A stretch of 63,989 bases of DNA, the filler included, from Diploschistes diacapsis (Eukaryota), in assembly GCA_023645945.1 (NCBI GenBank). It is 6 parts of 6 records of this genome, joined end to end, with 100 filler letters (N's around TTAATTAATTAA, not from the genome) between each part and the next. Parts side by side here need not be neighbours in the genome. Positions count along the whole stretch, not along the records: positions 51,062 to 58,047 come from JALAIB010001324.1; 5 more parts are not named here. One strand, 5' to 3'. How positions within the stretch are numbered: position 1 is the first letter of the stretch; each line of letters opens with the position of its first letter. The translations under genes and the position numbers were made by a program. The notes under the pieces are model-generated. The model was not told the DNA's origin. It was given only the letters and a program-made list of their open reading frames with translations, and ran no database searches. Shown here piece by piece: positions 50,962 through 61,816 of this stretch.

Positions 50962-51061
50962 NNNNNNNNNNNNNNNNNNNNNNNNNNNNNNNNNNNNNNN
51001 NNNNNTTAATTAATTAANNNNNNNNNNNNNNNNNNNNNNNNNNNNNNNNNNNNNNNNNNNN
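50962..51061. other. Artificial contig spacer
   Basis: N44-TTAATTAATTAA-N44. Confidence 0.98.
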
Positions 51062-52027
51062 CCTCCCCCGTTTCCCCAATCCAGTCCCTCGCTCCATCAA
51101 CCGCTACCCTAGCCAGCCCCTTCGCACCCCTCCTCCTCCCTCTCCTCCCAGTATCATGGCCCAAACTTCCTTCCCTCACTGCACTCGGACTCCTCTGCCC
51201 CCCACTACCGCCAGCGCTCGGGCTCCTTGGACTTAACATAGCCCCCATATTCGGCAGGCCCAGCGCGCTGGAACTTCGTGCGGGCGAGACGAGTGGGGAG
51301 GTTGGGTCGGTCGCATACTCCGAGCCCATGCTCGGGAGAACGTTGTCACCTGCGGATAGGGAGATGAAGAGGGAGAAGGGCACGAGCCAAACTTGGAGGA
51401 AGAAGAAGGATGCTATTTCGGTGAAGGAGGGGAGGGCTGGGGCGGGGCTGTAGTAGGATGGAGGCGTAACGGAGCGTGGCGGGTGCGAGAAATGCAGGAA
51501 CCAGAGGTAGTGGTTTAGGAGGACGAGGACTGTGGGCCGAAGAGAGACAGAGTGGTCAGTGGATGGGATAAGATAAAGCTTCCCCGGAGAGGAGGGGGGG
51601 AAGAGGGTATAAATTGGGAGAGAGGTAAGGAGGGCATGGTTAGGGAAGGGGAGAGACTTACGGCAGGAAACTATGAAGATGGGATCGCTCAACCGGACGA
51701 TGGGGAAGTGCCGCAGATTCTGGTAGTAGATGGCGTGGCTACCGATGCTGAGGAGGGAGAGCCAGAAGGGCAGGCGGTCGACTGCGAGAAGGAGGAGCTG
51801 GCAGATCACCACAGTGTAGATGAGGCGGACGAGAAGCTTCTTGGCGGAGACTGTGTGCTCCTCTACGAGCTCAGAAAGGTAGTAAAGGCCCGATGCTGTG
51901 GGGGTGGATTGGTTAGTTGTGGGTGTATGGACTTTGAGGTAGGAAGGAGGTGCATACCGATAGCGAGGGTGAGGAAGCCAAAGCCGAGGAGAAGCCCCAG
52001 GTAGCCAATGAAGGGGAGAATCCACAT
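51062..52027 (-). CDS. SVP26: Svp26/Erv26 (TEX261) ER-Golgi cargo adaptor, 3'-truncated
   Basis: MWILPFIGYLG...FLTLAI|ASGLYYLSELVEEHT; NHYLWF; EIASFF...VWLVPFSLFISLSAGDNVLP; two introns. Confidence 0.93.
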
Positions 52028-54556
52028 TGCAGAGTTTCGCGCGTGAGGATGTTGGAGAATGGGGTTTGAATATACATTACAAAGTAAGGTGCGTTTGTAT
52101 AAAATTCATGCCGAGGACAAGTTGCGCTACCTCATTAGAGATGAGAGAACCCGGGCCGAGCTTTTCCGGAGAAGTTGGTTATCTACACACCTCTGCTAAA
52201 TACGCCCAATCAGGCCATACTATAACCCCTTTTCAATGTTCACGGTACAGGGGTAATACAGAGAACTCAATGAGCATCTGTTCGATGTTTAGGTCTACTG
52301 AAAGGTAGCACAGTTCTTCAGGTATTTCAACAATTATATGGTTTGATCTGAAGTATTTCTAGAGCTCTGAGGTGGATATAAAGTCGTAAAAAGGGGGTAT
52401 TTGGTGTGCCATTCATTCATCACTAATTGTGGCCTGCCAATATACCGAGCGCATATCGATAATTCTTATAGAGAAGTTATTTACCTACAAGCAAACCAGC
52501 TCTTCCCAATTCTCCTCCGCCACCCTCCAAGCCCCATATTCTCACTCCGCCGTCGCTCCTCACAACCCCTGACTGGGCAACGCCCTTCTCTTCTCACCTC
52601 CCATCACCTCTTCCCTAATCGTAGCCCGTAGACAGATAGTAGCCTCTCTTTAACCTCCAGACCCGCAAACCTGCGACAATGGTGTCGATCCTCGTCGTCG
52701 CTGTGAGGCCCCTATACTGCCTGCCAGCCCATTTCCACCGAAACGTGCCCAATTCTCAGTCGTTTTTGCTGCCTATTGCTTCTAGAACTTCCCTAGCGCA
52801 TAGCGGAGACTTGCTGGTATCGCACAGCCGTCGTTAGCGCCGTCGCCGCCCGCACGGCTTCGCTGAGCCTCCGTAATCGGTCTTCGAGCCTATCCAGCAC
52901 TCGACGCTCTCGATTTGACGGCCCAATACCTTCGACGATGGTCTGGGAGTGGAAAGAGGAAGATATGAAGCTTTCACATACACAAAACGAGGTGGTGGGT
53001 GGGAAGATGGGGTCGCTGTCCGCCATGACGGAGGAGAAGGGGGTATACAGAACACAATGAATACTCGCTCATACCTACTGCTTTCTCTCTGAGACTCACC
53101 TTTTGTACTTCTGATCATTGCGCGCTCACCTGAATCTCTCCTCACCCAGTAGTTGTGATGTAAGGCCGCTTTGCACCCTGCGCAGGCCTGGATCGGGGCC
53201 ACCCTCAGTGCGCAATCAATACCACCTACCTGTAGTCGTGCCATATACCATTCTACTGCCCTCACCTTCCACGATCCAATGCGCCTACTCCGCGACGTCC
53301 TACGGGCGTGGTGGTGCCGTGATGCGCGCTCCCCCTTTTTCCCAAGCCCTCACATCCTTCGTGCTCAATTACGGGCGCACACCCGTGTTCGCTGCCGCCA
53401 CACCCAAGCCACCCCTAAACGGTATAGTTTGACAGGCGGAACCGCAGTTCAAGGGCATGCTAACCCCTTTTCATAGGTCGTGAGCGAAGATTATCCCAAG
53501 AGTGCCCGTAAGACGGCGAGAATACTTAAGCGATTTGCGATCGTGATTCCTTTTGTTCCGCACCTTTTGCTAGATCTGCTTCATGCTTCACAGCTTCTGC
53601 TACTAGCTTCATTGGTTCCCTGCCCCAGTTTATACTGCTTCTTGCCTCGCGGCTCTTTTCTGACAACGCTTGCCCACCGCTCAAGCGCATATCGCGACTT
53701 CGCCTGTCAGCAACATCGACAAACCCCCTTGCTGCCATCAGGCTTGCTTCTGTGGTCCGGTATCCAAGATGCCGGGACTCCGAAACAGTGTGGTCGAATG
53801 GCCACAGTACCCGTAAGCATTCCCTCTTCACTGATGCTCTTCTTGCTTCTCCTCTATGCCCACTTTTCGACTTGTAGTCGTAGATGGTCGTCGGCGCTGC
53901 TGGGGGGTGTCTTGGACGGTCGGTCGGTCATCGTCTTCGATTGTGTATCCATCAAGGATCATATGGATGCTTGCAAGGACTTGGTCGTGGAGACTGGTTC
54001 TGGGACAGAGGAAAAGAGCTTGGACCTGGACTATCACATTGGCCTTGGGAATACACCTTCACACTGCTACTGGAACACATCACACTGGTGCTAAGACCTA
54101 CCCGCACTCCGCCATGGAACCATGTCATGCCGCCCTGGATGTGTGCCTTCACACTACCATTGGAGCTTATGGTGCCGACCTTGGGCTTGCCTTCACACCA
54201 CCACTGATGCGTCTGATCACTCACCATCATGCCGAAGCATACTGCGAGGGCCAAACGTTGTCTAGCGCACATCCTCCCCCCTTGAGATGTCGAAGCATGC
54301 GTCGAGTATCTATCAAGGTGTATCACGTGACCTTACTCACCAGGAGCACTTGGCCGGTAGATAGTTGTGGTTCCTGGACGTCCTCAGCAGCACGGCGCCT
54401 TCGATCTTGGGGGTTCACTGAGCGGCTTCTCAATCCATTTGGGCAACCTGCCAGTAACCTCCACAACCTCTTCGACAACACACCTGTCTCGTAGCCTCGT
54501 AGTCTCGTAGCTGTAGCTGTCATGGGACGGATCACGAATACTAACTGGTTAATAGG

Positions 54557-55222
54557 TTGGCTGCTGTCGCCACTGGGATACCTATGGTGGCACCATGGTG
54601 GCCCTTCGCACCTCCGACTCCGGCGGCTGGGAGAGACTGGGCAATGCAAAGCACCCTCTCCCAGCAGATCATGATGGTCGGCGTGGCACGTCGCCCGTTC
54701 CCGGAGCAGGCTCTGCCCTGCCCGAGGACTCGTGCCAGCTTCCCAGAGTGTTCTGGAATCCCCGTTCCCCTGGAGCAATTGGGGCGCTGCCGACGATCTG
54801 TCGCGCCTCCTGGGATGACCGCTCCCACTGTCGCCTTCCCTGGTGACAGTCAGATCCCGGGACCAAGCGCCGGCACCGCCTTCCCGAGTCGACCGAGGAC
54901 ATACAACCTCGAGGAGATCCTGCTGTTCCCGCGCGTGATCACCTGCGCCGAGGTCGACCAGGGACGGAAGCCGGTTTTCAAGGCGGCCAGGCGAACGAAC
55001 GAGAACCTGGAGAAGGCGCGCGGCCTTGCTCTCCGGGCACGCTACGTCGACCTTGTCGGCAAGACAAGGCGGGAGCTCGCCCCACGTGGCATCAAGTCCT
55101 GCATGAAGGGCGCAGGCGGCCGTCCCCAGAACCCGCCAGCCAAGTCTGTTCTGTGGGGTCGCTCGGCCAATCCGCAGCACCTTCGTAGGCACATGGGGCG
55201 AGGCCACGCCTTCTACCAGTGA
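54557..55222 (+). CDS. Orphan basic protein or terminal exon (~210 aa) upstream of the structured repeat arrays
   Basis: 221-codon open frame starting just after a CTAAC...TAG acceptor (54541-54555); GC3-rich codons in the 3' half; first ATG at 54584. Confidence 0.45.
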   Translation: MAAVATGIPMVAPWWPFAPPTPAAGRDWAMQSTLSQQIMMVGVARRPFPEQALPCPRTRASFPECSGIPVPLEQLGRCRRSVAPPGMTAPTVAFPGDSQIPGPSAGTAFPSRPRTYNLEEILLFPRVITCAEVDQGRKPVFKAARRTNENLEKARGLALRARYVDLVGKTRRELAPRGIKSCMKGAGGRPQNPPAKSVLWGRSANPQHLRRHMGRGHAFYQ

Positions 55223-55234
55223 TCGGTAGAAGGA

Positions 55235-55981
55235 CTCCGACAGCCTGGAGTAAGGGGCCAGGCTTGTCTTATCGGAGGATACCCTGTTCTTCTCTTTCGC
55301 TGTCCAATGTTCTGGAGTCAGGGGCCAGAACTGTCATGACGGACGATACCCTTTGCCTCTTCTTGTCGACTCTCCAAACTTCCGGAGTAAGGGGCCGGAA
55401 GCGACACCACGGAGGTTACCCTGCCTTCTCCTCTTTCTCCCTCTCGACTTCTCCTTCTCGACTCTCCAACGTTCTGGACTAAGGGGCCAGAACCGCCATC
55501 CTGGAGGTTACCCTGTCCTTCTTCTCTCCCTTCCCTCCCCCAGCACTTCTTCTTCTCGCTTCTCGGACATTTCGGAGTCAGGGGCCGAAATCGACACAGC
55601 CGAGGATACCCTCTGTCTTCTCTTCTCGACACTCCAACATTCCGGAGTAAGGGGCCGGAATCGCCACAACGGAGGATACTCTGTCTTTCTTCCCTCGCTT
55701 CTCCAACGTTCTGGATTTAGGGGCCAGAACCGACACAACGGAGGATACCCTGGAGCGGTCGTCTTGGTTCGCACCAGAGACCTCGACGCCGCATAGCCAG
55801 TTCGACATCTGGTTTTCTCTGTCCCATCCTCGGAAATCAGGGGTCCGAGGTGTCACAAGGGACGAAACCCTCGACCAGCCGTCTTGGTCGCTCCAGCAGA
55901 ATCGACAAGTCACCATCTGCTGCTCTCGACATCCCATGCTTGGAAGTAAGGGGTCCAAGCTGTCACAAGGGAAGATACCCT
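55235..55981 (+). repeat. Tandem array 1: nine 51-nt structured modules separated by mostly pyrimidine-rich spacers
   Basis: Units start at 55235, 55302, 55372, 55464, 55562, 55632, 55701, 55821, 55931; conserved loop ANTNAGGGG, covarying stems. Confidence 0.9.
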
Positions 55982-56020
55982 GGTTTCGGAGCGGCCAATG
56001 TGGCAGAATCAGGGTTGGAC

Positions 56021-57090
56021 AAGTGCCCGGGGATGGGTCTCAATGCTCGTGTCATTGAGGTGGCTGCTACCAAGGAAAGGCTTTGGGAAAAGTCGGGTGG
56101 GAGCAGCCGAGGAGACAAGCGGTCAGGGGTGACACCAGGTCTAGGATGGAAGTGCCCGGTAATGGGATTCGGCGCTCGTGTTCGTCGTCTCGTCAGCTGC
56201 CGAGGAGGGCTGTTGGAGCCAGGCGAGCTGATGGGGAAGCGGTCGGGCTGTGACACTGGGGTCTGGGATGGAAGTGCCCGGTCACGGGGCCTCATTGCTC
56301 GTGCCAATGAGGTGACTGCTGCCAGGGAAGGGCTTTGGGAAAAGCCGGGCGGTAGCAGTCGGAGGAGGTGCTGGGTGGAGGATCGAAGTGCCCGGACATG
56401 GGATTCGATGCTCGTGTCATCGTCTAGTCAGCTGCCATGGAGGGCTGCTGCAGCCAGGCGAGCTGGTGGGGAGAGTGGTGGTGGTGCTATCGTCGGAGTC
56501 GAGGGAAGAAGTGCCCGGGTATGGGATTCGACGCTCGTGTCGTCGTCTCGTCAGCTGCCATGGAGGGCTGCTGGAGCCAGGCGAGCTGATGGGGAAGCGG
56601 CCAATGTGGCAGTATCAGGGTTGGACAAGTGCCCGGTTAGGGGGTCTCATTGCTCGTGCCAATGAGGTGGCCCGCTACCAGGGAAGGGCTTCGAGAGAAG
56701 TCGGGCGGTAGCGGTCGGAGGACGCGTCTGGTGGAGGGTGGAAGTGCCCGGATAAGGGATTCGGCGCTCGTGTCGTCGTCTAATCAGCTGCCGCGGAGGG
56801 CTGTCTCAGAGCCAGGCGAGCTGATGGGGTAGCGGTCAGGCTGTGACACTAGGTCTAGGATAGTAGTGCCCGGTGATGGGATTCGGCGCTCGTGTCGTCG
56901 TCTCGTCGGTTTCCACGGAGGGCTGTCTTGGAGCCAGGAGAGCCGACGGGGTGAGCGGTCCAGTGACATTTGGGAGGAGGACAAGTGGCCGGATATGGCA
57001 GCCAGGGACTTGGAAAGCGGCCGAGTGTGGCGATGGGGTGGAGGATGAAGCGCCCGAGGTGGGACGTGGTGCTTGCAGTCACTGCGTGGC
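56021..57090 (+). repeat. Tandem array 2: eight full and two degenerate ~120-nt multi-hairpin modules of two subtypes
   Basis: AAGTGCCCGG-led units at 56021, 56150, 56272, 56386, 56509, 56627, 56742, 56864 (degenerate at 56983, 57048); conserved CTCGTGY loop. Confidence 0.9.
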
Positions 57091-58047
57091 CAGCTAATCG
57101 GGACTGACGGCCTGGTGAGTACAACTTGTGGCAACACCATAGGATATGGACTAACCTGAGAGTAGAGGGTCGTTTCGGGAGGGTTTCTGTTGGCGAGTAG
57201 GGGTTGGAGTCTCGACTCCCTAATCTGTAATCTGTAGTCGGGAGTCTGGCGCTTGGGGTCTATCGTCCATAGTCTGGGTCGGTCGTCCATAGTCTAGGGC
57301 CTCGAGTCTGTCGCTTACGCTTCGGCATTGGCTTTGGCTCTGGCGGCGCTGAGGCTGGTATGTTGCGCTGCTCCTTGCCACACGTGAGCGAGGAGGCTGG
57401 GGGCGATCAGTTCCCCTTCACCTCGCCTGTAAATGTTAGATTGCCTGGCAAACTGGAAAGGGAGTACGCAGTCTACTTCTATGGAGTATGCGAGTAGAGG
57501 AGGCAGCGTTTGTCGCAATAAAATCTTTTTCTTCATGCGTGTGCCACTTTGTGTTCACTGTAGGCGTAGATTGTGTCCCACTCCCCCTGAATTGCTGTTC
57601 CCTCGGTACTTTCTCCCCACACCACATCCGGTAAATCCAATCCATATCCTCGTTTAACCCTTTTGAGGATCTTCGCAAACCCTATCGCAAACCCTACTCG
57701 CCTACCTATACAGCAACACCACCACAACGACTTCATTTCTACTAGTCACTCAACACAACATTTTATGATCTAGCAATGTGCTCTGTACAGGGGTCACGTC
57801 ATTTCAATACCTACCCAAATTAAACTATCCGCGCCCAAACTCATTTCAACATCAACACCAACATCTTTGCACAATCACATCCTCGCATCCTCCATTCTTC
57901 CATCTTCCATTCTCGCATTCTCGCATTCTTGCATCTCGCACTCTCGCACCCGCGCGCCTGCGCACCCTTTCCACGAAAACGTCCCCCAAATGTCTCGCCC
58001 AGAAGACACACTGTGCGCGCCTCCACCCACCCCATCCCCCATAATCC

Positions 58048-58147
58048 NNNNNNNNNNNNNNNNNNNNNNNNNNNNNNNNNNNNNNNNNNNNTTAATTAAT
58101 TAANNNNNNNNNNNNNNNNNNNNNNNNNNNNNNNNNNNNNNNNNNNN
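58048..58147. other. Artificial contig spacer
   Basis: N44-TTAATTAATTAA-N44. Confidence 0.98.
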
Positions 58148-58500
58148 TTTTAAATGCGCGAGTAATTTTTTAAATATTAATATATTATTATCATTTTAGG
58201 ATTTATAAATAATCGTTAATATTAGATTCTATCAGAACCGAATTATTACCATACGATATAGTTATTATTGAGAAAGATCGAATATAAGATGAAAATAATA
58301 ATTTAAAATGGCCGGAATCTGGAAGTGGCCGGAATCCCCGTGAAACACGTTATAATGCCAAAACGATTCGGCCTTTTAAATATTTATAATAAAAGAATGT
58401 TATCGTACGAAAGGTGGAAATGTTAAGAAATATATTTTACGAAGGTACAGGGATTGTGAGCAGCTTTATGGTGTGATCCGTTATATGGTGAAACACGTTA
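58148..58500. mobile_element. AT-rich (RIP-like) pogo/Fot1-type DNA transposon ends
   Basis: TIR with internal direct repeat TGGCCGGAATC x2 ending ...GTGAAACACGT|TA at 58350-58352; second GTGAAACACGT|TA at 58488-58500; TpA-rich flanks. Confidence 0.65.
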
Positions 58501-58825
58501 GCTGGGAATATATGAAACTATTGAAAGTTTTCTTTCTTAGCCTCCACAAAGCTTTAAGTTTCAATCTATCTGCCCTATCAGAGGAAATAATTATCTCATG
58601 TTTCGAGTGACCTTTTTATTTCCTTTATATCTTTTATCCTTTTATACAGTGTATACTGGCTTGCGTCAGTGCAAGAACTCGGTAATCTCAATATTTATCT
58701 CTTCATGTTAACGTTGATGACATCGGAACCTGCCTTTTGTGACAATATCCCGTTGTCGCATCAATTTCGATTTTTCTTATCGTCCTCTCAACGGACTCAA
58801 GATCAGGGTATATAATATCTTGAAC

Positions 58826-61816
58826 ATGGGAACCTCGAACCAGTCACCGAAGAGCTGTGACCGGACCATGAAGGATGCCTCAGGAGGTCACGAAGACTAT
58901 GTCTCATTTAATGATAACACTATTGCACAAGACCCGGGTCATAGTCTGCATTTCCAGTCCACAAACGATTCCCAGGTCTATGGTCTGAACCATCTCTCTC
59001 TATCTCAGACTAGAGAGAGGGAACATCGAATCAACGACGAAATTGCCATGCTGCAGGCCGAGAGAGTGGTGTCAAATTCAAGAAATGCCCTCCGTCTCTC
59101 CCATTCCTTAGATAAATCCAGATCAAGAAGGACAGAACATATTGATGAATTTGATGTGAATACCAATCCCGTGCACGAGATTAACGCCGTGTACAAACCT
59201 CCAGAACATCCAGCATCAGAACTTCCCAAAATATTCAAGAAGATACACAATTCGAGTTTTCTAGTACGGTATTTCATGTACATAATACCAGTGGCCGCCT
59301 TGCTCCTTGTGCCCTTGCTGGTCGGCGCGCTTGTGTACGAGAATAGTGATAAGGGCGTCGGGGGTGTTGAATTATTGTGGTTTTCAGTGTGGCTAGAAAT
59401 CGTATGGCTTACACTATGGGCTGGTCGGGTAGGCCTCTCGATGCTTCTTGGAGAGAAGCAAAACTCACGCCCTGCAGATTGCCGCAAAAATGATACCATG
59501 GCCTCTTGGCCTCCTCTCAAGCTTGTTCACGAACAATAGCAAAAAATGGAGGGATATGGGCAAGCAGCTTGAACTTCCCATCACGCTTTTCTTCTGGTGG
59601 CTAGGTGTCGAGATATCGTTTCTGCCAACCATGATGAATCATAGGATTCCTGACTATACTGGAGATATAACCTGGATGACGATAGTCAACCAAATAATTA
59701 TCTCGATCTTCGTGGGAGCCGTGCTGAATCTGTTTGAGAAAATCATTATACAGCTTATTGCCATCAGCTTCCATCTCCGCACGTACGCTGACCGCATTGA
59801 GATCAATAAGTTTCAAATCGGAAGTCTGGTCAAACTGTACGACTACTCGAAAAAAAAGATCGCAATGGACGACTCGGATTTTGAAGATGATCCACATCTG
59901 TCTGGGCCTGGCTCTGGAACGCGAACGCCAATGCAATACGTTGAGAAGGCTAGACGTGACTTTACCTCGGGGTTCCGCAAAGTAGGCGATGTCGCAGGTA
60001 AGGTTGCCGGGGATTTCACGGGTAAACAAGTCACCCAAAGCACACATCCACATCAGGTCGTTCTGGTCCTTCTAAATTCGACTCAGGGTTCGCAGGTACT
60101 AGCTCGGCGGCTGTATCGTACATTTATCCACGAGGATGCTGAGACCGTATCATCAGAGGACATGCTGCCTGCCTTCGATAATGGTGACGAAGCCGAAGCT
60201 GCTTTTGCCATGTTTGATAAGGATCTGAATGGTGACATTTCCATGGAGGAGCTGGAGTCAGTCTGCGTCGAAATCGGTCGAGAGCGTAAGTCCATTACGG
60301 CGTCCTTGAAGGACTTGGACTCCGTTGTCTCCAAACTAGATGCCATACTTGTTTTTATAGTCGTTTGCATAACCTTACTAGTTCTCATCACGCTAATGTC
60401 AACTTCCGCCGCTGGAGTTTTAACGTCCGCCGGCTCGACAGTGCTCGCGCTCAGTTGGCTCTTCTCTGCAACAGCGCAGGAGTTTCTGCAGTCGATAATA
60501 TTTGTATTTGTGAAACACCCGTTTGATGGTGAGCCCAATCCCGTTTGATTGCGAGTAAATTACTGATCTTGGTGACAGTCGGCGATCGTGTTTCAATCTA
60601 CGGCAACACGGGAGCATCAATGAAGGGGGATGATTATTTTGTAAAAGAAATCTCTCTACTGTACACCGAGTTTAAGAAAATGGAGGGCCAGGTCGTCCAA
60701 GCGCCAAACAGCTATCTAAATTCTCTTTTCATTCTCAACATGCGTCGCTCAGGAGGGCTTGCGGAAGCTGTACCACTGACAGTCAAATTTGGAACCACCT
60801 TGAATGAAATAGAGGAGCTTCGAGGCCGGTTGCTAGAGTTTGTCAAGGCTGAGAAGCGCGAATACCAGGGCAATATACTTACAGAAATCCGGGATGTCGT
60901 TGAAGCTCATTCAATAAACCTGAATGTGGTATTCTTCTACAAGTCCAATTGGCAGAACGAAGGTCTACGCTTACAGCGGCGTAACAAATTTATCTGCGCT
61001 ATGATGGTTTCAATGCAAGAAATCGGGATAGAAGGTCCATTAATGCGACTGCCAGGCCAAAAGTCGAATATACCCTTTTATGTCCAATATCCTTCTGCTC
61101 GCTCCACAGAGACACTTGCTCCTGTCGATGAGATTCCTAGCTCTGTGGCCAACCCATCTGCCCGTGACCGTCTCTTCGTGCCCAGGATCACCGGTGAGCA
61201 TACAGAACCTCGACATCAACAGTCAACGTTACACTATCCAAGCACATTACGAGTGAGAGAAACCAGAGGAGAATCAGTTTCCTCTATGGCGAAAAGGGTG
61301 GATTTTTCGCTTGGTATGAGGGACTTTGCCTCCGGGGACGTGCTTGGGGACGTTTACGATAATGGACCGCGTATGCATGTTCCAGACATTGTGCGTAGGT
61401 CGGTCTCTCGAGGCCACGACGATAGGACAACTAAGGAGGATAATGCCTCCGTAGGTACCTCAACTGTCCGTAATGAGAACGGTGCACATTCTCGATTTTC
61501 ATTGTACCGTTCTTCAACGGAGGCGCGATCCAGAACGAAAGCCGCACATGGGACAATCCGTCCCAACCGGTTTTTCAGAAGTGGTGACAGAGATACAGAA
61601 ACAGACCCAGATCACGAATGCCTCATGGAGCGAGGTTTGGCTATCTCCGGGTCAGATATCCATTTGTCCAAAATTGACCCGAGAACTGGCACCACCAGCC
61701 AGCAGGCGATGCAAAGCAAGCCTCATAAAACCACGGACCGTGGAGTACCGGATAGAGACGCCGAGACCCAGGCACATGATGCTACAGACACTTTCGGAAT
61801 GAGAGAGATGAGCTGA
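58826..61816 (+). CDS. MscS-like mechanosensitive channel with EF-hand (Msy1/Msy2 type)
   Basis: [21 protein letters not shown]-hand [35 protein letters not shown]...N.RRS; introns 59429-59477 and 60529-60578. Confidence 0.94.

Follow-up and report, generated by a model that had tools for sequence, protein, structure and literature searches.

Two tandem arrays of structured-RNA units behind a small basic reading frame in the lichen-associated fungus Diploschistes diacapsis: a candidate multivalent RNA scaffold

Results

Organization of the locus

The DNA analyzed here, referred to as the window, is a stretch of 63,989 nucleotides joined from six parts of the Diploschistes diacapsis genome (assembly GCA_023645945.1), and the locus under study lies in the part derived from record JALAIB010001324.1. 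In this lichen-associated fungus, what appears to be a small gene, encoding a very basic protein, precedes about 1.9 kb of structured-RNA arrays, such that some 19 short RNA folding units are laid out in two tandem arrays between positions 55226 and 57114 (Table 1). The open reading frame (ORF), the arrays, an intron signal and an AATAAA motif are all located on the + strand. A previous sequence-only reading of this DNA had listed a branch point and acceptor, the basic ORF, a hairpin at its stop codon, the two arrays, a short intron and a short duplication, and each of them was indeed found where it had been placed. Arrays 1 and 2 are the sole tandem repeats with a score of at least 80 in the window; TRF assigned periods of 67-92 to array 1 (55247-55752), and a period of 356 with 2.5 copies to array 2 (56118-56992).

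Table 1. Coordinates of the features of the locus, counted along the window
Feature	Position	Strand	Remarks
Branch-point-like ACTAAC; acceptor-like TAG	54540-54545; 54553-54555	+	Read directly from the sequence; no canonical donor nearby
Open frame	54545-55222	+	ATG at 54584
Longest ATG-initiated frame	54584-55222	+	212 aa, pI 11.2; first 77 codons non-coding in appearance
Likely real small ORF	54815-55222	+	135 aa, pI 11.25; 24 K+R against 9 D+E
Stop-codon hairpin	55209-55233	+	Perfect 9 bp; 7-nt loop holding TGA 55220-55222
Array 1	55226-55985	+	Nine units of ~55 nt in register; two interspersed two-hairpin modules
Array 1, unit cores 1-5	55235-55285, 55302-55352, 55372-55422, 55464-55514, 55562-55612	+	
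Array 1, unit cores 6-9	55632-55682, 55701-55751, 55821-55871, 55931-55981	+	
Module M, copy 1	55752-55821	+	Two hairpins, between units 7 and 8; z -2.6
Module M, copy 2	55872-55931	+	Hairpins CGACCA/TGGTCG and CAGCAGA/TCTGCTG, between units 8 and 9
Array 2	55990-56978	+	Linker, then 8 units of 114-129 nt from 56017; order A B A B B A B B
Array 2, subtype A starts	56017, 56268, 56623	+	
Array 2, subtype B starts	56146, 56382, 56505, 56738, 56860	+	
Array 2, degenerate tail	56979-57114	+	Three decayed H1-like starts
Canonical intron signal	57115-57165	+	51 nt; GTGAGT 57115-57120, ACTAAC 57150-57155, TAG 57163-57165
20-nt tandem duplication	57256-57295	+	Polymorphic; one copy absent in run X2
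AATAAA	57517-57522	+	Candidate polyadenylation signal, inferred from the motif

Compensatory changes in array 1

The nine units of array 1 align without a gap over 64 columns, 21 of which are invariant, many of them unpaired. Each unit contains an outer helix, P1, of 4-5 bp (columns 10-14 with 48-52), and a 7-bp hairpin, P2 (columns 17-23 with 33-39), that displays the conserved 9-nt loop ANUNAGGGG; both helices were recovered independently by RNAalifold. The spacers between units are pyrimidine-rich and variable in length, the successive unit spacings being 67, 70, 92, 98, 70, 69, 120 and 110. When every pair in every unit was counted as one cell, 96.5% of the 144 cells formed standard pairs, against 79.9% in shuffles, and double-sided changes were seen at 9 of the 16 pairs, a result equalled by none of 500 shuffles. 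As a further control, sliding the partners by 1-3 columns lowered pairing to 26-60%. P2 is Watson-Crick paired in all 63 of its cells, and 6 of its 7 pairs covary, several positions exhibiting three types of pair. In P1, 3 of 5 pairs covary, and the double changes in units 2, 5 and 8 match the partner strand of their own unit only.

The units also carry a 3' ACYCU that is able to pair with the P2 loop, and a pseudoknot between loop AGGG and the downstream CYCU (columns 28-31 with 57-60) is thus possible. Two other pairings were considered and discarded. A local 3' hairpin (columns 47-52 with 57-62), which competes with P1 in the single-sequence fold, found no support across units, with an A-C apposition at 51-58 in 8 of the 9 units and mismatches where P1 compensates. 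Pairing of GGAG with the CUCC of the next unit was rejected because the double changes fit within one unit only. The array 1 of the earlier reading was present, with the amendment that it also houses two copies of a third, two-hairpin module (module M), the two copies being judged alike by eye. The heptamer TCTCGAC has 5 of its 18 window matches within 55442-57216, all on the + strand; they mostly stand just 5' of an array 1 P1, and one follows the intron.

Two subtypes of unit in array 2

The units of array 2 are larger, with spacings of 129, 122, 114, 123, 118, 115, 122 and 119, and are built of three helical elements. H1 has the form CCCG-GNNA-YGGG. H2 presents the conserved loop GCUCGUGY on a stem that resembles CUCAAUG/CAUUGAG in subtype A and CGRYG/CRUCG in subtype B, and in H3 a 6-7-bp outer stem and a 3-bp middle stem lead to an inner hairpin. 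The sequences of H2 and H3 differ between the two subtypes, while the architecture and the GCUCGUGY loop are kept; unpaired positions are invariant across array units, and some linkers contain an additional small hairpin. The GNRA loops described earlier do exist as loops, with the reservation that their consensus is GNNA and only some of them are GNRA.

Pairing is nearly complete throughout. Over all eight units, the 22 shared pairs are formed in 173 of 176 cells, with double changes at 6 pairs; when the subtypes were taken separately, 109 of 110 cells were paired in B and 82 of 84 in A. Within subtypes, double changes were found at 3 and 4 pairs, and 6 and 13 of 500 shuffles were as good. 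Even in the degenerate tail, one copy reads GCCG-GAUA-UGGC, in which H1 has been retained through a double change. In the units of both arrays, compensatory changes have preserved the helices, which bears out the earlier proposal of two tandem structured-RNA arrays. A long-range duplex between the two arrays was rejected, as only matches of 17-20 nt at 80-82% were found.

In a separate observation, two 151-letter records of run X5, which comes from another organism, matched a 220-nt piece of array 2 (56167-56386) with 100% identity and no other part of the locus. One of them runs on into 60 unlike letters, and these records could be chimeric or contaminating sequence, or else derive from a copy that is separate or processed.

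Strand and coding potential of the arrays

Wobble pairs are informative about the strand. Array 2 contains 16 G-U cells and no A-C cell; since the - strand would turn all 16 into mismatches, array 2 is to be read on the + strand. The core helices of array 1 contain a single G-U and no A-C, and its terminal pairs comprise 6 U-G (9-53) and 4 A-C (14-48). The earlier argument that G-U pairs point to the + strand is thus upheld for array 2, and is not carried by array 1.

A motif can be read in different frames within one and the same 314-codon open frame, and long open frames arise readily in this G-rich DNA. Because most unit spacings (67-129 nt) are not divisible by 3, and the units lie in different frames, the arrays are not coding. 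A repeat-containing protein gene was rejected on the same out-of-frame spacings and on the lack of a Pfam match; indeed, Pfam recognized no family in 16 ORFs on either strand of 53477-57293.

The small basic ORF and the hairpin at its stop codon

The longest ATG-initiated frame begins at 54584, and several properties place the start of the product further downstream. GC content by codon position is flat over 54584-54814 (0.66/0.65/0.68 for the first, second and third positions), and from 54815 on it becomes coding-like, with the third position (GC3, 0.78) above the first (0.65) and the second (0.55); GC3 is 0.47-0.58 in the neighboring genes. A full HMMER search with the 212-aa frame against 1.84 billion representatives (E<=0.001) returned four matches, namely the ORF itself, two repeat or low-complexity sequences (P0002, P0003), and P0004, a protein of 148 aa, encoded on a 1704-bp ENA contig, that is the only credible homologue (E 2.2e-4, 39% identity over 107 aa). 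Met1 of P0004 aligned with Met78 of the query, i.e. the ATG at 54815. Considering this alignment, the GC content by codon position and an in-frame deletion of 3 nt that run X2 carries at 55080, the product is likely to be the 135-aa protein that starts at 54815. The ORF of the sequence-only reading stands as a basic ORF, and its start has probably to be moved.

Beyond P0004, the protein has hardly any kin in the collections searched. A word-based homologue search with the 212-aa frame found only the frame itself, a profile search and a search for longer proteins added no further relatives, Pfam gave nothing even at E<=10, and the PDB sequence search gave chance-level matches only (E 0.29 or worse). 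The AlphaFold model was poor, with a mean confidence score (pLDDT) of 47.8, and showed one long helix at residues 52-87.

The stop codon is enclosed in the loop of a hairpin of -14.4 kcal/mol (z -3.1; equalled by 1 of 200 shuffles), the 3' arm of which stops 2 nt before unit 1 of array 1. ORF and arrays are therefore contiguous, and this spacing leaves no room for a separate promoter.

Downstream of the arrays, the 51-nt intron signal conforms to the strict pattern GTRAGT..CTRAC..YAG. Since just 10 sites in the window fit this pattern, both strands counted, and 4 of them sit at junctions of consecutive long same-strand ORFs, it is plausible that 57115-57165 is a real + strand intron. The polymorphic 20-nt duplication that follows is probably non-functional.

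Two short repeats upstream of the ORF are recorded here. The sequence CCTTCACAC occurs three times at 54056-54198, always on the + strand and nowhere else in the window (0.32 expected); the copies precede the likely start of the ORF by about 600-750 nt and may be a promoter or 5' untranslated region (UTR) element. A microrepeat of three copies of (CTCGTAGC) occupies 54488-54511, just upstream of the acceptor-like signal.

Conservation in related genomes and copy number

The locus was recovered in the contigs of runs X2, X3 and X4 at about 95-99% identity; the comparison covers the 28 listed pieces out of 176, and the three genomes are related and non-independent. The locus is colinear in the three genomes; in X2 and X3 it occupies the same place between the same flanks, and contigs of these two runs span the junction of ORF and array 1 as well as that of array 2 and the intron region. 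The array contigs of X2 have depths of 60-81 and its flank contigs 77-99. Over the listed pieces, the arrays differed at 7 of 1175 positions (0.6%), the flanks at 113 of 5097 (2.2%) and the ORF with its 5' region at 17 of 814 (2.1%). The difference between arrays and flanks had a pooled Fisher p of 7e-5 (0.02, 0.08 and 0.01 for the individual runs). Among the listed indels, only one, of 9 nt at 55890, altered the length of an array. It may be added that a second stretch, 53413-53906, also diverged little (3 of 494 positions against X2 and 2 of 384 against X3, the neighboring stretches being at about 2%); a CTAAC...TAG lies ahead of 53477, and the ORFs of this stretch have no Pfam family.

Within the window, a covariance model of array 1 (R1) found only the nine array 1 units across the 64 kb, the next match scoring 12 bits, and blastn of 54400-57400 against the window placed none of 31 high-scoring segment pairs outside the locus. 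The locus is most likely lineage-restricted and probably single-copy.

Search for known RNA families and mobile elements

Rfam 15 gave no match at E<=1 over 53500-58500; at E<=10, two chance-level matches appeared in 55200-57200, at 17.9 bits (gathering threshold 87) and 11.1 bits (gathering threshold 50). ARAGORN found no tRNA gene in 52000-58000. In the IMG/VR viral contigs, a collection poor in mycoviruses, neither RNA motif had a match, and none of 214 pattern matches to the ORF product was confirmed. JGI metagenome contigs yielded two single matches that reached 9.9 bits with R1 and thus represent chance. Prokaryote genomes yielded no match for array 2 and one single, unscored match for the array 1 motif, in a Planctomycetia metagenome-assembled genome, which was taken as chance.

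Several classes were considered individually and set aside. A telomerase RNA was rejected, as there is only one CCCTAA and no such repeat architecture, and ribozymes of the hepatitis delta virus-like, hammerhead and twister types were rejected by eye and by Rfam. The pistol ribozyme required closer attention: array 1 shares with it a loop that can pair with a downstream strand, an A/C-rich joiner and an enclosing second helix, arranged in an order like that of a circularly permuted pistol. However, the spacer in which P3 and the G-U cleavage site should lie is pyrimidine-only and has no hairpin, and the Rfam pistol model did not match; array 1 is not a member of this family.

With respect to mobile elements, the earlier reading had seen no reverse transcriptase, transposase, long terminal repeat (LTR) or terminal inverted repeat (TIR), and this held: none of the 16 ORFs had a Pfam match, and inverted repeats at the locus amounted to five weak pairs of 17-23 nt with 80-84% complementarity. 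Its further statement that no fungal element of this layout had been described agrees with our limited searches and is not thereby proven. Literature searches retrieved no paper describing such a layout, and by term search the words 'tandem' and 'repeat' were absent from two systematic surveys of fungal structured RNAs (PMC5640933, PMC8216456).

Genomic setting

By Pfam scan, the locus is placed in a 6.6-kb gap between an Erv26 homologue (51006-52076, - strand) and a gene encoding EF-hand and MscS-type channel domains (59433-61816, + strand). Short introns bearing GTRAGT...CTRAC...YAG are seen at ORF junctions of the window, and the source is probably a filamentous ascomycete. Among sequencing runs, a single one, labelled a lichen metagenome, matched all sampled words of the stretch; partial matches came from a run of another organism (0.61 of the words), a rock metagenome (0.50) and two runs with small shares, and no RNA run matched. 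The locus lies in a GC-rich island, with GC contents of 0.58-0.62 over 54000-57000 and about 0.50 around. The GC skew is negative in array 1 and flips to +0.3 in array 2. A very AT-rich stretch (58000-58700, GC 0.27-0.34), inside which a run of N is found at about 58045-58095, lies upstream of the EF-hand/MscS gene.

Discussion

A proposed transcript with a multivalent 3' scaffold

The interpretation that we favor, with a probability of roughly 0.4, is that the locus encodes a lineage-restricted + strand transcript of RNA polymerase II (Pol II), the 3' part of which is a multivalent RNA scaffold. A single transcript of about 3 kb would contain, in this order, the basic ORF (135 aa, or 212 aa), the stop-codon hairpin, about 1.9 kb of modules, a short intron near the 3' end and a polyadenylation signal. 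There would be roughly nineteen modules of three kinds, each folding separately, so that every molecule would offer in its 3' part many copies of two or three binding sites. Such a scaffold could collect many copies of one or a few RNA-binding partners, and a candidate partner is the basic, largely disordered protein that is encoded just upstream. The stems vary and yet pair, the loops and joiners are fixed, the copies are many and they change slowly; it is this combination that suggests repeated binding sites and hence a multivalent scaffold.

A number of observations weigh against this interpretation. All covariation comes from paralogous units at one locus; as these units arose by block duplication, with periods of 356 and about 260 nt, the independent events are fewer than the cells. 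Within the subtypes of array 2, covariation is modest. The pairs of the array 1 pseudoknot are invariant save for one G-U, so that this element is neither supported nor refuted, and array 1 on its own does not fix the strand because of its near-pure Watson-Crick core and mixed terminal pairs. On the + strand, the folding energy of the whole arrays is no better than that of dinucleotide shuffles (z -0.68 for array 2 and +1.77 for array 1), and the C-rich - strand of array 2 reaches z -2.79; because the + strand energies are ordinary, the case for structure is one of covariation, not of stability. The lower divergence of the arrays is drawn from 28 of 176 pieces and three related, non-independent genomes, and in the collections searched no relative was found beyond about 95% identity. 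Lastly, what joins the ORF product to the RNA is adjacency and charge only.

Two bolder readings, to which we give only a slim chance, deserve description. The locus may be a self-contained ribonucleoprotein (RNP) gene, in which the basic protein would bind both arrays on the mRNA that encodes it and so assemble a large RNP of repetitive make-up, which might seed a condensate or serve as a transport granule or as a virus-like particle without a capsid; this would be a domesticated 'protein plus packaging array' unit, of a kind not known to be described in fungi. Alternatively, the unit types may be new classes of ligand-binding or self-cleaving RNAs, arrayed for cooperative sensing or for the production of many small RNAs.

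Alternative explanations

First among the alternatives, and unlikely in our estimate, is a processed multi-RNA precursor, which would be cleaved at the borders of the units, either by nucleases of the host or through self-cleavage, releasing RNAs of about 70 and 120 nt in the manner of polycistronic snoRNA or tRNA clusters, or of satellite transcripts with self-cleaving ribozymes. Such processing would suit the discrete, self-contained folds, each closed by an outer helix, which is P1 in array 1 and H3 in array 2, with spacers of low complexity in between, as well as the semi-conserved TCTCGAC just 5' of P1 in several units. It might also bear on run X5, where only the 220-nt piece of array 2 occurs, at 100% identity. 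However, no ribozyme, snoRNA, tRNA or other family was matched at E up to 10, neither C/D or H/ACA boxes nor a hammerhead core could be seen by eye, and the pistol-like reading of array 1 fails at its pyrimidine-only P3 spacer.

A second possibility, quite unlikely, is that the modules act in cis as a 3' UTR, and that together with the stop hairpin and the 3' UTR intron they control their own mRNA, and nothing in trans, at the level of termination or readthrough, of decay including nonsense-mediated decay (NMD), or of localization. An intron downstream of a stop codon is a layout tied to intron-dependent NMD in filamentous fungi. Here, the candidate intron lies about 1.9 kb past the stop codon, the stop codon itself sits in the loop of a 9-bp hairpin, and ORF and arrays are contiguous. 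Nonetheless, nineteen modules far exceed the known needs of cis control, and the arrays are more conserved than the ORF that they would serve (0.6% against 2.1%).

It is very doubtful that the arrays are a tandem repeat devoid of RNA function, that is, a hairpin-prone minisatellite in which perfect stems stem from DNA-level processes, namely template switching during replication or conversion between the arms, and were then multiplied by unit duplication. Template switching is reported to be able both to generate hairpins and to preserve them with seemingly compensatory changes, and could thus mimic compensation (10.1101/2021.04.15.439925). The origin of the units by block duplication, their unexceptional folding energy and the plainly polymorphic 20-nt duplication nearby all fit this explanation. 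Against it, six different helices in three module types all keep their pairing while the loops are invariant, and G-U outnumbers A-C by 16:0 in array 2. Moreover, divergence from the relatives is about 3.7 times lower in the arrays than in the flanks, contrary to what is expected of a neutral minisatellite, and the 9-nt difference at 55890 is the only change of array length among the listed indels of X2-X4.

Finally, derivation from an RNA-based mobile element, as a remnant or a non-autonomous copy, or from virus-like sequence that had integrated, with the protein as a nucleocapsid-like component and the arrays as packaging or replication signals, would account for a small, basic, disordered and nearly orphan protein next to hairpin arrays in a GC-rich island (ORF GC3 0.78), and is nevertheless highly improbable, since there is no second copy in the 64-kb window, no reverse transcriptase, integrase, replicase, LTR or TIR was found, the viral contigs gave no match for either RNA pattern and no relative of the protein, and the locus has the same place and flanks in X2 and X3, with array contig depths close to those of the flanks. 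The earlier reading had left three functions side by side, i.e. scaffold or sponge, processed precursor, and mobile or viral element; they are still not separable, although the last of them has been weakened by these same findings of a single copy in the window, no viral match and colinear contigs at flank depth.

Significance

Few structured non-coding RNAs are known in fungi outside the housekeeping classes, and the present ones come from lichen fungi, whose RNA biology is almost unexplored. The locus constitutes its own comparative data set, in that its 9 + 8 + 2 diverged copies describe three apparently new RNA folds at base-pair resolution, and these array folds are more conserved among related genomes than the neighboring DNA. 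If transcribed, the locus would provide a natural multivalent RNA with known module boundaries, which could serve as a testbed for protein recruitment by repeated RNA structures and as a source of new RNA-protein pairs.

Comparison with known systems

Xist repeat A and NORAD are animal long non-coding RNAs (lncRNAs) in which tandem protein-binding modules achieve multivalent capture of proteins. The present arrays resemble them in having short units in tandem, from several to a dozen copies, low-complexity (U- or pyrimidine-rich) spacers and, as far as can be predicted, a single Pol II transcript. There is no sequence similarity, and the animal units are simpler, being short hairpins or linear Pumilio sites, whereas the fungal locus has two complex folds, one possibly of the pseudoknot type, of about 55 nt, and one with three helices of about 120 nt, situated behind a small ORF.

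In alfalfa mosaic virus and the ilarviruses, arrays of hairpins and AUGC motifs in the 3' UTR are bound by the basic arm of the coat protein. The likeness consists in a series of hairpins with conserved loop or flank nucleotides and variable stems, and in a basic protein from the same genome. However, theirs is a viral RNA with 4-6 simple hairpins, whereas the locus described here is chromosomal, carries intron signals, has more and larger modules, and matched no viral gene or contig.

In Schizosaccharomyces pombe, clusters of the DSR motif in meiRNA sequester the protein Mmi1. Like the transcript proposed here, meiRNA is a Pol II RNA of a fungus, and its repeated motifs make it a multivalent decoy; these are short, linear hexanucleotides, in contrast to folded units in which the stems covary. 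Clusters of snoRNAs on polycistronic transcripts likewise have tandem structured units on one precursor, as do satellite or retrozyme transcripts that contain self-cleaving ribozymes. The locus differs from them in lacking visible C/D and H/ACA boxes and any match to a ribozyme family, and its units are much more alike than the members of a snoRNA cluster.

Overall, tandem units, apparently conserved recognition nucleotides and constrained stems liken the locus to lncRNAs and UTRs with tandem protein-binding modules. The modules are apparently new RNA folds, and their layout has its closest functional counterparts in the repeat-module lncRNAs and the viral hairpin arrays.

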